Source: Acidobacteriota bacterium (GTDB lineage: Bacteria > Acidobacteriota > Vicinamibacteria > Vicinamibacterales > SCN-69-37). From it: a DNA stretch of 64,000 nt. The translations under genes and the position numbers were made by a program. The stretch is taken from assembly GCA_947467605.1 (NCBI GenBank), contig CANIII010000003.1:74154-138153 (forward strand), given 5' to 3'. The notes beneath the pieces are model-generated. The model was not told where the DNA came from, ran no database searches, and was given only the letters and a program-made list of their open reading frames with translations. Position 1 is the first letter of the stretch, and every line of letters begins with the position of its first letter. Positions 39,507-41,657 of the stretch are shown piece after piece.

Positions 39507-39579
39507 TACCCGCTCACCCGCTGCACCCGCGCACCTGAGCACCCGCTCACGAGCTCACCCGCGTACCCGCTTACCCGTC
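39507..39579 (-). repeat. nine tandem octamer units YACCCGCK (GGG-tract repeat on the transcribed strand) between stop codon and terminator
   Basis: Units: tacccgct cacccgctg cacccgcg cacctgag cacccgct cacgagct cacccgcg tacccgct tacccgtc. ACCCGY starts at 39508, 39516, 39525, 39541, 39557, 39565, 39573. Confidence 0.8.
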
Positions 39580-41657
39580 TACGTCACGTTCTTGTGCGTG
39601 ACGAGCTCGTCCTTCTTCTTGCCGAGCCCCTGGATCTGCAGGCCCGTGGCGATCTCGGGTTTGGCTTCCTTGAGCACGACCTGTCGGTAGCGCTCAGCCA
39701 TGCGCTCGTTCTCGATCTGCGCCTTGCGCGCGCGGAGCTTCTCTTCGCGCGCGGTCTTGGCGATGCCGAGTTGGTCGAGGTCGGTCTGTTTGCCTTTGTT
39801 CACCGCTTCGGGATCGAGATTCAGCGTATGCGCCGTGGTCGCGAGCGCGACGGGCTTGTTGCCTGCGAAGATTTCGTGACGACCGTGCTCCTCATACCAC
39901 TTGGTGAGCGTGGCCGTCATGTGCATCTTCTCGATGATGTTCCGCCAGCCGACGCCCGTGTTGTAGGCGCAGAAACTGATCTCCCCTTCCTGGGTGGCAT
40001 ACGGGATGATGCAACGCTCCGTGCGGCGGAAGTCGTAGTTGAAGAGATCCTGGAACCACATGCCGGCGATGAAGAGGAAGTTCCAACGATCCTTGCGACG
40101 CTTCTCGATGTCTTCCATCGTGCGATCGCCGCTCACCTTGCCGTAATCTGTGCCGCTTGCGCCAAACGCCTTGTCGAACTTTTTCAAGAGGTCGGTCAGT
40201 TTGAAATGCGTCGGCGACTTGAACGGGTCATAGTTGCGCGCCAACGCCAGCGCCATCCCGATCATCGACATCGTCTTGCCCCGTGCCGCGTCGTTGACCT
40301 TCGCCACGTCACGCGAGATCTGCTCGGCTTTCAGAAACGCCGTGACCGGCACGGCTTCCTTTGTCTGTTTGTCGATCATGACGGCCATGCCGGTGCCGCA
40401 GTTCGGATGGCAGCCGCACGAGAGTGAGCCCCACGGATCCTCCGGCCCATGCACGAGATCAGCCCAGTCTCCGAATGTGCCGACGAACGAGATTGGGAAC
40501 CAGTCGCGCACCGGCTCGCCGAGTCCGGTCTGATTCGTCACGTCGTGCGCGAGATGGGAGAGCGTGTAACGCTGCGCCTCGCGCCGCTCCGGTGTGATCT
40601 CCTCGTCACGGCCCGTGAACGACACGGGCTGGAACGACAGGAACGAGATCTTGCGCGGGTTGTCGAGCGCGAACTGAATGATGCGACCAACCTGCTCGTT
40701 GTTCACGCCATTGAGGATCGTGGTCACCGGCACCACTTCGACGCCGGCTTTCCAGAGGTTCTCGATCGCCTGCAGCTTCACGTCGAACAGGTTGCCGACG
40801 AGCCGATGCGAATTGGCCGCGTTGCCGATGCCGTCGAACTGCAGATACGCGAACCGGAGGCCGGCCTGCGCCGCTTTACGCGCGAACTCCGGATCTTTCG
40901 CGAACTCGATGCCGTTGGTGGCCGCTTGCACCGAGTTGTAGCCGACAGTGCGCGCGTAGCGCACGGCCTCGAGGAAATGCGGCGAGAGCGTCGGCTCACC
41001 GCCGGAGAACTGCACCGACATCTGCCGGCGCGGCTTGATGGAGATCGCGTTGTCGAGCAGGGTCTTGATCTCGGCCCACTCGAGCTCGTGCACAAAGCCG
41101 ACCTGATTCGCGTCCATGAAGCATGGATCGCACATCATGTTGCAGCGATTCGTCAGATCGATTGTGAGCACCGCCCCGCGACCGTACTTGATCGTGGACG
41201 AGCCGTGGTTGTGAAGTGTCTCGTCATTGTGCGAGCGAATGTCGGACCCCGGGAATGTCTCTTCGAGGTGCTTGAAGAACGCCGTGTCCATCGCCATCAC
41301 GTCTTCGAAGTGACCGTGCATCGGGCAATCCTTGACCATCAGAATCTTGCCGTCACGCTCGAGGATCGTGGCTTTGATCTCGCCGACCTTCCCGGTGAGC
41401 AGTTCCTTGTGGTCGCGCTTGCCGTCAACAATCTCCTGCCGGGCTTCACGCACGCACACCGGACAGAGTGAGTCGGTCTCGCGCGGCCAGCCGAGCGGCG
41501 GCTTTACTTTCTCGGAGCTCTTCAGCAGGGGGGTGTCGGACCACTTCGGCGTGAATGACGCCTTCGGCTTGATCCGGTTGACCGTGTCATACACCGCCCA
41601 GGCACCATTCGCGAGGACGGTCAAACCCTTCTCGACGTACTTGATTGGCTTATGCAT
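39579..41657 (-). CDS. radical SAM enzyme, Tes/GDGT-MAS-like (candidate membrane-spanning lipid synthase)
   Basis: 692 aa. LCPVC..DCPMHGH N-terminal Cys knuckles, TNRCNMMCDPCF radical SAM triad, extra Cys groups SCGCHPNCG and C-x13-C. GGAGG RBS. CDS is certain; the subfamily call is by eye. Confidence 0.65.
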   Translation of the reverse strand: MHKPIKYVEKGLTVLANGAWAVYDTVNRIKPKASFTPKWSDTPLLKSSEKVKPPLGWPRETDSLCPVCVREARQEIVDGKRDHKELLTGKVGEIKATILERDGKILMVKDCPMHGHFEDVMAMDTAFFKHLEETFPGSDIRSHNDETLHNHGSSTIKYGRGAVLTIDLTNRCNMMCDPCFMDANQVGFVHELEWAEIKTLLDNAISIKPRRQMSVQFSGGEPTLSPHFLEAVRYARTVGYNSVQAATNGIEFAKDPEFARKAAQAGLRFAYLQFDGIGNAANSHRLVGNLFDVKLQAIENLWKAGVEVVPVTTILNGVNNEQVGRIIQFALDNPRKISFLSFQPVSFTGRDEEITPERREAQRYTLSHLAHDVTNQTGLGEPVRDWFPISFVGTFGDWADLVHGPEDPWGSLSCGCHPNCGTGMAVMIDKQTKEAVPVTAFLKAEQISRDVAKVNDAARGKTMSMIGMALALARNYDPFKSPTHFKLTDLLKKFDKAFGASGTDYGKVSGDRTMEDIEKRRKDRWNFLFIAGMWFQDLFNYDFRRTERCIIPYATQEGEISFCAYNTGVGWRNIIEKMHMTATLTKWYEEHGRHEIFAGNKPVALATTAHTLNLDPEAVNKGKQTDLDQLGIAKTAREEKLRARKAQIENERMAERYRQVVLKEAKPEIATGLQIQGLGKKKDELVTHKNVT

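Follow-up and report, generated by a model that had tools for sequence, protein, structure and literature searches.

Judged from its sequence and predicted structure, the protein of 692 amino acids described here, encoded in an acidobacterial genome, is a true homologue of the tetraether synthase found in archaea (Tes, also known as GDGT-MAS), but not a canonical Tes. By analogy with its archaeal relatives, we lean towards the tail-to-tail joining of the omega carbons of two iso-C15 glycerolipid chains as its likeliest function. More tentatively, and a little short of an even call, we propose that the clade to which it belongs, which lacks one of the archaeal iron-sulfur clusters (the N-cluster), is the missing iso-diabolic-acid (iso-DA)/brGDGT C-C synthase of aerobic soil Acidobacteria, distinct from both Mss and three-cluster Tes. 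Few proxies of continental palaeotemperature and pH are used as widely as the brGDGTs, and their producers and biosynthesis are largely unresolved (PMC12042123, PMC13274423). Membrane-spanning lipid synthesis in bacteria has been demonstrated for Mss, a remotely related radical SAM enzyme (PMC13159169), and bacterial Tes homologues have been proposed as membrane-spanning lipid or brGDGT synthases by Zeng 2022 (PMC8941075) and Halamka 2022 (PMC10087280). Chen et al. 2025 (doi 10.1016/j.gca.2025.05.019), as reported in PMC13023045, linked Tes homologues to tetraester lipids by co-occurrence. In the literature that we searched, neither genetic nor biochemical tests of a Tes homologue from Acidobacteria came to light.

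The open reading frame proposed in the initial annotation was recovered in full in the window, that is, the whole 64,000-nucleotide stretch of DNA that was analysed, and can be divided as follows.

39579–41657, minus strand: coding sequence of the 692-aa Tes-like radical SAM protein, with an ATG start and the stop codon at 39579–39581
41574–41651, minus strand: N-terminal amphipathic helix, aa 3–28, helical in the AF2 model (pLDDT 72–91) and without a counterpart in archaeal Tes
41292–41486, minus strand: rubredoxin-like zinc-ribbon domain, aa 58–122 (Pfam PF23545, 51 bits, cutoff 27)
41178–41231, minus strand: degenerate, cysteine-free linker, aa 143–160, at the place of the archaeal [4Fe-4S]N loop
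40608–41171, minus strand: radical SAM core, aa 163–350 (Pfam PF04055, 62.8 bits)
39858–40607, minus strand: C-terminal auxiliary-cluster/lipid-pocket domain, aa 351–600, placed by alignment to the archaeal enzyme MJ0619
39582–39848, minus strand: charged, mostly helical C-terminal tail, aa 604–692 (89 aa), absent from archaeal Tes

The ATG start is supported by the opening MHKPIKY(V/A)EK, which orthologues from other classes share. Every motif that had been quoted for the protein is present, namely LCPVC (C65, C68), DCPMHGH (C111, H114), TNRCNMMCDPCF (C172, C176, C179), SCGCHPNCG (C414, C416, C420) and RCIIPYATQEGEISFC (C549, C563), and together they contain all 11 of its cysteines. The tail, which had been described as Lys/Glu-rich and about 90 residues long, is indeed enriched in charged residues (34% K/R/E/D, against 25% in the rest of the protein), and its conservation is moderate inside the order and weak between classes. 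The helix at the other end has a hydrophobic moment of 1.57 and no TM segment, and is conserved among orthologues. An integral membrane protein can be ruled out, since the 19-residue Kyte-Doolittle mean peaks at only 0.96.

Membership of the Tes lineage, as originally claimed, is upheld by profile, sequence and structure comparisons alike. The NCBIfam Tes model NF045702 (Tes of Methanosarcina acetivorans, MA_1486) is the top family match and aligns end to end (query 61–580 against model 2–483), yet its score of 317.9 bits does not reach the equivalog cutoff of 450 bits. TrsS (NF045646) comes second with 211.9 bits, well short of the 490 bits that its own cutoff demands. A profile search against Tes/GDGT-MAS had been suggested as a check, with best hits in another subfamily such as the SPASM or cofactor-biosynthesis enzymes as the contrary outcome, and the result favours Tes: the best family outside the Tes lineage is NirJ1, at 74 bits against 318, models of the NirJ/AhbC/PqqE/MftC type reach at most this score and cover the radical SAM core only, and Pfam finds no SPASM domain in the protein. 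The crystallised GDGT-MAS of Methanocaldococcus jannaschii, MJ0619 (PDB 7TOL, 7TOM), is matched through 7TOL with E=1.2e-63 by the single sequence and 1.2e-172 by the family profile, at 32.6% identity over 485 aligned residues, while the next match of the single-sequence search, MoaA, stands at 2e-5. When the AF2 model (pLDDT 82, pTM 0.82) is superposed on the GDGT-MAS structure, as had also been suggested, Foldseek returns 7TOM/7TOL with E=4e-36, a TM(target) of 0.85 and an rmsd of 3.7 Å, followed by the next fold at 4e-9. The model reproduces the four-domain GDGT-MAS fold over the whole 498 residues, including the C-terminal lipid-pocket domain. Within the lineage, the clade of our protein is the monophyletic sister of the canonical Tes group, with indels of its own and a lost cluster; members of the canonical group score 474–558 bits (P0181, P0186, P0196) or, for P0207, 447 bits, just below the cutoff.

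These comparisons also bear on an alternative that we regard as distinctly improbable, that the substrate is a cofactor, peptide or organometallic compound rather than a lipid, as in the older annotation 'class D methylase/hydroxymethylpterin dimethyltransferase' or in the sister family TrsS. Many orthologues are named '7,8-dihydro-6-hydroxymethylpterin dimethyltransferase' at JGI, TrsS is the second family match, and lipid genes are absent nearby. However, the pterin-methylase annotation of MJ0619 was irreproducible and has been superseded by its lipid function (PMC9433317), the TrsS score falls far under its own cutoff and under that of Tes, no TrsS-type conserved neighbourhood was found in 81 loci, and the predicted structure retains the lipid-pocket domain.

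The metal sites show where the protein agrees with MJ0619 and where it departs from it. Besides the fold, the two share the rubredoxin-like site of three cysteines and a histidine, whose Fe ligands C65/C68/C111/H114 align with C9/C12/C33/H36 of MJ0619, although the two knuckles lie 42 residues apart here against 20 in MJ0619 (a loop 22 residues longer). They also share the CX3CX2C motif of the radical SAM cluster (aa 172–179, nt 41121–41144), whose C172/C176/C179 align with C98/C102/C105 and which is followed by GGEP at aa 219–222; in alignment A1, TNG is invariant and GGEP invariant or nearly so. Common to both, finally, is a C-terminal cluster with three cysteines and a labile methionine: C420/C549/C563/M533 align with C338/C455/C470/M439 of MJ0619, of which the three Cys ligands are themselves deduced from conservation, and are accordingly the predicted [4Fe-4S]C ligands. 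Absent, in contrast, are the ligands of the [4Fe-4S]N cluster, as MJ0619 C73/C77/C80/H83 align with a gap, H151, S154 and K157. The linker at this place is modelled with low confidence (pLDDT about 52–55), and the motif CPxxCGxCxxH, present in the canonical Tes group, is missing across the whole query clade. Extra in comparison with MJ0619 are about 55 N-terminal residues including the amphipathic helix, the 89-aa charged tail, and C414 and C416, which with H417 are additional residues of the C-terminal domain beside the C-cluster ligand. The initial annotation had counted two further Cys groups after the radical SAM triad; both exist, but jointly they would form one site, that of the catalytic C-terminal cluster, so the protein should carry at most two [4Fe-4S] clusters and one Fe. 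The archaeal Tes-like architecture that had been claimed thus holds for lineage, fold and catalytic sites and fails for the N-cluster and the 450-bit cutoff, just as the proposed check of ligand conservation against MJ0619 succeeds for the rubredoxin, radical SAM and C-cluster ligands and for none of the [4Fe-4S]N ligands.

A scan of a genome collection found relatives in at least 587 species genomes, and among the best 80 of these, for which identities are given, identity to the 692-aa protein is 74–84%. These 80 are labelled as Vicinamibacterales, Terriglobia/Acidobacteriaceae (including the cultured Acidipila rosea), Bryobacterales/Solibacter and Blastocatellia, and members of the clade were seen in Korobacteraceae and Solibacter MAGs as well. 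When the orthologue of Acidipila rosea served as the query of a further protein search, this and two cluster-member look-ups returned almost only metagenome proteins. All 15 positions checked (14 proposed ligands and H417) are invariant, and the ligand positions of the radical SAM, rubredoxin and C-cluster sites do not vary among 120 close homologues or among 81 orthologues drawn from four classes of Acidobacteria. Such identity between four classes implies strong purifying selection on the orthologue group. Both this selection and the invariant ligands speak against the idea that the protein is a catalytically dead, or purely structural or regulatory, relic of Tes, to which we give very little credence, although one cluster has been lost and two members of the wider clade are clearly decayed, P0136 of Terriglobus roseus (no C-cluster cysteines) and P0146 (no CX3CX2C). 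P0136 was rejected as an orthologue on the grounds of its 42% identity, its missing C-cluster cysteines and its location on a conjugative element.

Should the chemistry follow that of M. jannaschii GDGT-MAS, the protein, a member of the tetraether-synthase lineage, would be a peripheral-membrane radical SAM enzyme whose C172/C176/C179 cluster would cleave SAM to yield a 5'-deoxyadenosyl radical, and this radical would take a hydrogen from the terminal methyl of a lipid tail inside a hydrophobic tunnel. A sulfide of the C-terminal [4Fe-4S] cluster (C420/C549/C563, labile M533) may then hold the resulting substrate radical until a second SAM cleavage activates the other lipid tail, so that the two can be bonded through carbon. 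The presumed products are membrane-spanning lipids of the iso-diabolic-acid type, which have the carbon skeleton of brGDGTs. Under this scheme the acidobacterial clade would have kept the rubredoxin-like Fe, lost the surface [4Fe-4S]N cluster and gained the amphipathic helix and charged tail, which may serve to contact the membrane or a partner. GDGT-MAS has two hydrophobic pockets for lipid tails, one leading to 5'-dA and one to the C cluster. Its C-terminal cluster is implicated in catalysis, whereas the other two metal sites are described as unclear in their roles; the lipids that it binds include bacterial phosphatidic acid with ester linkages (PMC9433317). The lipids of the host differ from those of the archaeon, with bacterial G3P esters or ethers bearing iso-C15 chains here and phytanyl chains for MJ0619. 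What has been observed is the homology, the fold, the conservation of the ligands and the spread among taxa, whereas substrate, product and mechanism are drawn from this analogy.

The protein is a plausible candidate for a bacterial membrane-spanning lipid synthase, a function that fits its phyletic spread. Iso-diabolic acid has been reported in subdivisions (SD) 1, 3, 4 and 6 (PMC13274423, PMC13159169), and the spread of the orthologues (best 80 of at least 587 relatives) coincides with these subdivisions. Mss of Thermotoga and Thermoanaerobacter (Sahonero-Canavesi 2022) is a radical SAM enzyme demonstrated to make (iso-)diabolic acid by tail-to-tail coupling, the activity proposed for our protein too; it is found in anaerobes and is described as only remotely related to Tes. 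Since Acidobacteria yielded no mss homologues (PMC13159169), they need a different enzyme for the coupling. In E. aggregans, a producer of iso-DA and brGDGT-Ia, the one Tes homologue matches MA_1486 with 32% identity and E=4e-61 (PMC8941075), values that resemble the 32.6% and 1e-63 of the query clade to MJ0619. Against the coupling reading count the sub-cutoff Tes score, the absence of one of three clusters, and the finding of Sahonero-Canavesi et al. that, by their own thresholds, Tes homologues are present in only 3 of 14 iso-DA-producing acidobacteria (PMC13159169).

A further difficulty comes from Ca. Koribacter versatilis and Ca. Solibacter usitatus, the homologues of which are much nearer to archaeal Tes than is the query clade: their top matches to MA_1486 have 42% and 40% identity, with E=1e-149 and 1e-139 (PMC8941075), and S. 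usitatus has two Tes homologues (PMC10087280). These top matches probably belong to the N-cluster-bearing group. The two genera apparently also have another Tes lineage, which is more archaeal-like, retains the N-cluster motif and could be their real synthase. A rival reading, unlikely in our view although the most substantial of the alternatives, is that our protein acts on lipid tails with chemistry other than intermolecular omega-omega coupling, such as intramolecular macrocyclisation, mid-chain cross-linking (GMGT-like) or another modification, and that membrane-spanning coupling in Acidobacteria is performed by the more archaeal-like paralogue or by an unrelated enzyme. The clade is, after all, a sister group with its own indels, a lost cluster and a score below the equivalog cutoff, it is carried by Korobacteraceae and Solibacter MAGs as well, paralogues frequently diverge in function, and GDGT-MAS itself couples both intra- and intermolecularly (PMC9433317). 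An instance of related chemistry is Gms, the archaeal GMGT synthase, which also joins lipid chains by Csp3-Csp3 coupling and whose auxiliary Fe-S clusters have been proposed to act like those of Tes (PMC13459092); it bridges chains at mid-chain rather than tail to tail, and has no rubredoxin domain (PMC13459092), which the 692-aa protein keeps. Tail-to-tail coupling is nevertheless favoured by the invariance of the residues linked to coupling (C-cluster ligands and labile Met), by E. aggregans, which makes iso-DA and brGDGT with reportedly one Tes homologue (PMC8941075), and by a spread over SD1/3/4/6 that matches iso-DA and no rarer modification.

Genomic context is silent as to function. When the ORFs of the window and of 80 related loci (81 loci in all) were clustered, no conserved neighbour emerged: the most frequent one is shared by 13 of the 81, with MutY in 11, msrP in 10 and msrQ in 9, and the neighbours nameable by Pfam are housekeeping genes. 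The 81 loci show no conserved neighbour that is a lipid gene, and there is no lipid operon, which counts against the coupling reading. The distant clade members P0121 and P0135 are stand-alone genes too. Horizontal acquisition was ruled out by the GC content of the gene (0.61–0.62), near that of its flanks (0.58–0.65), and by the housekeeping chromosomal region that the window represents. The gene is accompanied by the following signals.

41695–41723, minus strand: putative promoter TTGCAA-17-TAGATT, weak, read from the sequence
41668–41688, no strand assigned: perfect palindrome ACTAACTA-N5-TAGTTAGT in the leader, a candidate operator or 5' stem-loop
41662–41666, minus strand: Shine-Dalgarno GGAGG, read from the sequence, 4 nt 5' of the ATG
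39461–39488, minus strand: intrinsic terminator with a perfect 9-bp G+C stem, a 4-nt loop and a U5 tract

The GGAGG ribosome-binding site and the perfect 9-bp terminator of the initial annotation are both sound, the terminator by RNA folding, in which the stem (39467–39475/39480–39488, with U5 at 39462–39466) is found in both the MFE and the centroid structures; the terminator lies about 90 nt past the stop codon, ahead of the next gene (start near 39394). The gene's own promoter fared less well. Its hexamers, TTGCAA (41718–41723) and TAGATT (41695–41700), and the 17-nt spacer are where they were said to be, but they match the sigma-70 consensus at 8 of 12 positions, a scan of the gene's upstream region gave zero promoter-like sites, and the upstream regions of relatives neither align nor show conservation. 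The proposed promoter is thus no better than chance, and a conserved one is ruled out. The leader palindrome is unique within the window, was reproduced in 0 of 100 shuffles and folds as RNA with -14.2 kcal/mol (z -3.5), while an Rfam search of the leader and 3'UTR found no riboswitch or known RNA at E<=1. Monocistronic transcription, also claimed, is plausible from the 106-nt gap after msrQ, the downstream terminator and the lack of conserved neighbours.

The present analysis contributes a delimited clade with a map of its ligands and of where it occurs, the idea of a bacterial synthase having been in print since 2022. The gene is highly conserved, stands alone and is very abundant in soil metagenomes. 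If it encodes the coupling enzyme, it would serve as a marker with which to trace brGDGT producers in metagenomes, and as an experimental handle on the response of methylation and cyclisation to temperature and pH. If the N-cluster-less clade is the iso-DA/brGDGT synthase, one gene would suffice to mark the chief producers of the brGDGT palaeothermometer lipids in the environment, the [4Fe-4S]N cluster would be dispensable for the coupling chemistry, and this natural two-cluster version of Tes would test which metallocofactors Csp3-Csp3 coupling requires.

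The open reading frame described in the initial annotation (39579..41657, minus strand, ATG start, 692 aa) was recovered exactly, and its ATG is correct, because orthologues from other acidobacterial classes share the N-terminus MHKPIKY(V/A)EK. The protein has 11 cysteines in all, and Pfam recognizes in it an HMPTM N-terminal zinc ribbon (PF23545, aa 58–122, 51 bits) and a Radical_SAM domain (aa 168–330, 62.8 bits). Its top NCBIfam model is the tetraether lipid synthase Tes (NF045702; query 61–580 on model 2–483), with 317.9 bits against a curated cutoff of 450, followed by the sister family TrsS (211.9 bits, cutoff 490), while NirJ1, the highest-scoring model from any other lineage, gets 74 bits, over the radical SAM core only. 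The sole strong match in a PDB sequence search is Methanocaldococcus jannaschii GDGT-MAS (MJ0619; 7TOL/7TOM, E = 1.2e-63); MoaA comes second at 2e-5, and a family profile improves the GDGT-MAS match to E = 1.2e-172. An AlphaFold2 model built from an alignment of 20 diverse sequences (mean pLDDT 82, pTM 0.82) finds 7TOM/7TOL in Foldseek with E = 4e-36, a target-normalised TM of 0.85, an rmsd of 3.7 Å and 30% identity, the runner-up fold being SkfB at 4e-9. Since NCBIfam, PDB and Foldseek all favour Tes/GDGT-MAS, no other radical SAM subfamily provides the best match.

The metal sites of MJ0619 are a rubredoxin-like iron (C9/C12/C33/H36), an N-terminal auxiliary cluster, [4Fe-4S]N (C73/C77/C80 and one His), a radical SAM CX3CX2C cluster, and a C-terminal auxiliary cluster, [4Fe-4S]C, held by three Cys and a labile M439 (Lloyd et al., PMC9433317). 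After reconstructing the 7TOL sequence from the profile alignment, we placed it in one alignment with the query plus 18 diverse relatives, and the query cysteines fall as follows.

C65 and C68 (LCPVC), C111 with H114 (DCPMHGH): MJ0619 C9/C12/C33/H36
C172, C176, C179 (TNRCNMMCDPCF): MJ0619 C98/C102/C105
C414, C416, C420 (SCGCHPNCG); C549, C563 (RC...FC): the remaining cysteines

Every cysteine group quoted in the initial annotation is present, but the two listed there as further groups together form one cluster site, with C420/C549/C563/M533 aligned to MJ0619 C338/C455/C470/M439. As C438 and C456 of MJ0619 are unconserved across the family, we infer, from conservation and not structure, that the three conserved cysteines are the [4Fe-4S]C ligands. 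The N-terminal auxiliary cluster is missing from the query, because C73/C77/C80/H83 align to gap/H151/S154/K157; the segment replacing it (aa 143–160) is the main low-confidence stretch in the globular part of the model. The proposed Tes architecture is borne out for the rubredoxin site, the radical SAM triad and the C-cluster ligands but not for [4Fe-4S]N, and the protein can hold at most two [4Fe-4S] clusters and one Fe, as against three clusters. What the coupling chemistry is known to depend on is thus kept, because the substrate-sulfur intermediate forms on the C-terminal cluster, whose ligands the query retains; for the other two metallocofactors the role was called unclear (PMC9433317).

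Among 1.84 billion cluster representatives searched, 7245 are related at E ≤ 1e-3, and 602 of them still at E ≤ 1e-30. An alignment of the full-length diverse hits splits into two groups. The canonical group (homologues P0181, P0182, P0183, P0186, P0191, P0196, P0207, P0212, P0246 and P0268) has CPxxCGxCxxH and a short rubredoxin loop; four members were scored with the Tes model, P0181, P0186 and P0196 at 474–558 bits and P0207 at 447, just below the cutoff. The query group (the query, P0121, P0135, P0136, P0145, P0146, P0150 and P0190) lacks CPxxCGxCxxH, scores 204–414 bits and forms a single clade in a crude neighbour-joining tree. In the query's own orthologue group the rubredoxin loop is 22 residues longer than that of MJ0619, and the features below set this group apart as well; no transmembrane segment was found in the query protein.

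aa 3–28: N-terminal amphipathic helix
conserved segment KWSDxPLLKS...PPLGWPR
C414 and C416: extra cysteines
aa 561–600: extension, very conserved
C-terminal tail: 89 aa, charged, helical, low model confidence

Several distant members of the wider query group are further decayed: most of the C-cluster cysteine positions are gone from P0136 and P0145, the counterparts of C420 and C549 from P0150 and P0190, and the CX3CX2C motif from P0146. Such losses would fit a dead enzyme, but the query's own orthologue group is free of decay, with all 11 Cys, H114, H417 and M533 invariant in 120 close homologues and 81 orthologues, and we consider that reading very improbable here. P0136 (WP_014786616.1 of Terriglobus roseus DSM 18391, at 10001-11875 of its locus) is a 42%-identical Tes-like paralogue without the C-terminal-cluster cysteines, on a conjugative element with TrwC relaxase, TrwB coupling protein, two integrases, RepA and ParA. 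Orthologues from subdivisions (SD) 1, 3 and 4 (L020, L034, L050, L053, L055, L057) end in a conserved ...[FM]GD (e.g. EEVGSFGD, PAGFGD, ETVMGD), a motif absent from the window protein, which ends in ...THKNVT.

With one genome scanned per species, at least 587 stretches encode relatives. The best 80 of these are 74–84% identical, include the cultured Acidipila rosea DSM 103428, and are labelled Vicinamibacterales/-aceae, Terriglobia/Acidobacteriaceae, Bryobacterales/Solibacter/Sulfopaludibacter and Blastocatellia, equivalent to subdivisions 6, 1, 3 and 4. When A. rosea served as the seed of a second search, MAGs of Edaphobacter, Terracidiphilus and Korobacteraceae were added, and 90%-identity clusters of up to ~2100 member sequences appeared. 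Orthologues are named "tetraether lipid synthase" in some databases and carry an obsolete pterin-methylase name in others. Orthologues of 75–80% identity also lie on contigs labelled as Betaproteobacteria, proteobacterium and Bifidobacteriaceae MAGs (L017, L029, L051), probably mis-binned acidobacterial contigs because an amidohydrolase neighbour of L017 recurs at the acidobacterial locus L032.

The window is ordinary chromosome: it matches ENA metagenome contigs (longest 624 kb) and carries MutL, PPDK, GlyQS, RecO, AspRS, HisRS, MoaA, msrPQ and a DnaE2 cassette, and the GC content of the Tes-like gene matches that of its flanks. Clustering of neighbours at 81 loci showed no conservation past about order level (msrP/msrQ upstream in 9–10, MutY in 11, the others further housekeeping genes), and the distant members P0121 and P0135 likewise stand alone, with no lipid operon around them. 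The gene is a stand-alone unit outside any lipid operon. A non-lipid role would fit this organization, but the Tes fold speaks against it; we regard it as unlikely, and rank it, like a dead enzyme, below another reaction on lipid tails. Directly 5' on the same strand (41764-43457) lie msrP, a molybdopterin oxidoreductase, and msrQ, a ferric-reductase-like membrane protein; the loci checked among the 9–10 sharing this adjacency are Vicinamibacterales-labelled or the query's closest relatives. Directly 3' (33811-39394, minus strand) are three consecutive large ORFs, two CarboxypepD_reg-repeat proteins, the nearer with an N-terminus resembling a signal peptide, and a 637-aa ORF without a Pfam match. 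A DnaE2-type error-prone polymerase (1030 aa), a 481-aa protein without a Pfam match and a 242-aa RecA-like protein at 47885-53158 (minus strand) resemble an imuA-imuB-dnaE2 mutagenesis cassette.

Three flanking signals had been proposed for the gene.

41662-41666, minus strand: Shine-Dalgarno GGAGG, 4 nt 5' of the ATG, read from the sequence
39467-39475 / 39480-39488, minus strand: terminator hairpin, perfect 9-bp G+C stem, 4-nt loop, U5 run
41718-41723 (TTGCAA) and 41695-41700 (TAGATT), minus strand: putative promoter, 17-nt spacer

The first two were found as proposed. MFE and centroid folds both contain the hairpin, which separates the stop codon from the following gene, whose start is at ~39394 in gene calls on identical contigs. 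The promoter hexamers and spacer exist, but they are a guess as a promoter because 8/12 consensus positions match, a promoter scan of the upstream region found no site, and that region does not align among relatives. Neither UTR matched an Rfam family. An 8-nt tandem repeat (39508-39577, consensus ACCCGCTC, 8.6 copies, 76% matches) occupies the stretch from stop codon to hairpin. Between the putative -10 and the ribosome binding site, a perfect palindrome, ACTAACTA-N5-TAGTTAGT (41668-41688), occurs once in the window and in 0/100 shuffles, folds as RNA at -14.2 kcal/mol (z -3.5) with GGAGG partly paired, and is unconserved among relatives; an operator and a 5' stem-loop are possible roles.

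Zeng et al. (PMC8941075) reported 456 bacterial Tes homologues and proposed brGDGT-type lipid synthesis for them, with one homologue in E. aggregans (32% identity, E = 4e-61) and others in Koribacter (42%, 1e-149) and Solibacter (40%, 1e-139). Halamka et al. (PMC10087280) found two in S. usitatus and proposed diether condensation, and Boukhchtaber et al. (PMC11868695) described bacterial Tes homologues as experimentally unconfirmed; a 2026 paper (PMC13023045) cites Chen et al. for a link between Tes homologues and tetraester lipids, which in its account rests on co-occurrence. The literature searched yielded no direct test, genetic or biochemical, of an acidobacterial homologue. In Thermotoga and Thermoanaerobacter the proven membrane-spanning lipid synthase is Mss, a radical SAM enzyme different from and remotely related to Tes; mss was not found in Acidobacteria, and Tes homologues were found in just 3/14 producers of iso-diabolic acid at E ≤ 1e-50 and identity ≥30% (Sahonero-Canavesi et al., PMC13159169). 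With ~30–33% identity to archaeal Tes, the query clade sits on this threshold, which could explain that count.

iso-Diabolic acid is reported from SD1, 3, 4 and 6 (PMC13274423). We judge the most likely function, at slightly better than even, to be omega-omega coupling of glycerolipid iso-C15 chains into iso-diabolic-acid-based membrane-spanning lipids, because the protein has the Tes fold and keeps the radical SAM cluster, C cluster and Met, its orthologues are under strong purifying selection, its distribution fits the iso-diabolic-acid-producing subdivisions, and Mss is absent from Acidobacteria. The main rival, to which we give perhaps one chance in a handful, is that the enzyme carries out another, related reaction on lipid tails and that the canonical Tes paralogue performs the coupling where present; the missing [4Fe-4S]N speaks for this rival, the retained coupling elements against it.

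That acidobacterial Tes homologues exist, and the membrane-spanning lipid idea, are already published. To our knowledge, the literature searched does not state that the phylum-wide orthologue is a two-cluster variant without [4Fe-4S]N and with extensions of its own, that it fails the Tes equivalog cutoff, or that it is 74–84% identical across four classes yet a stand-alone gene. The orthologue touches a long-standing question, on which the window, while giving no further experimental handle, offers a well-defined candidate.
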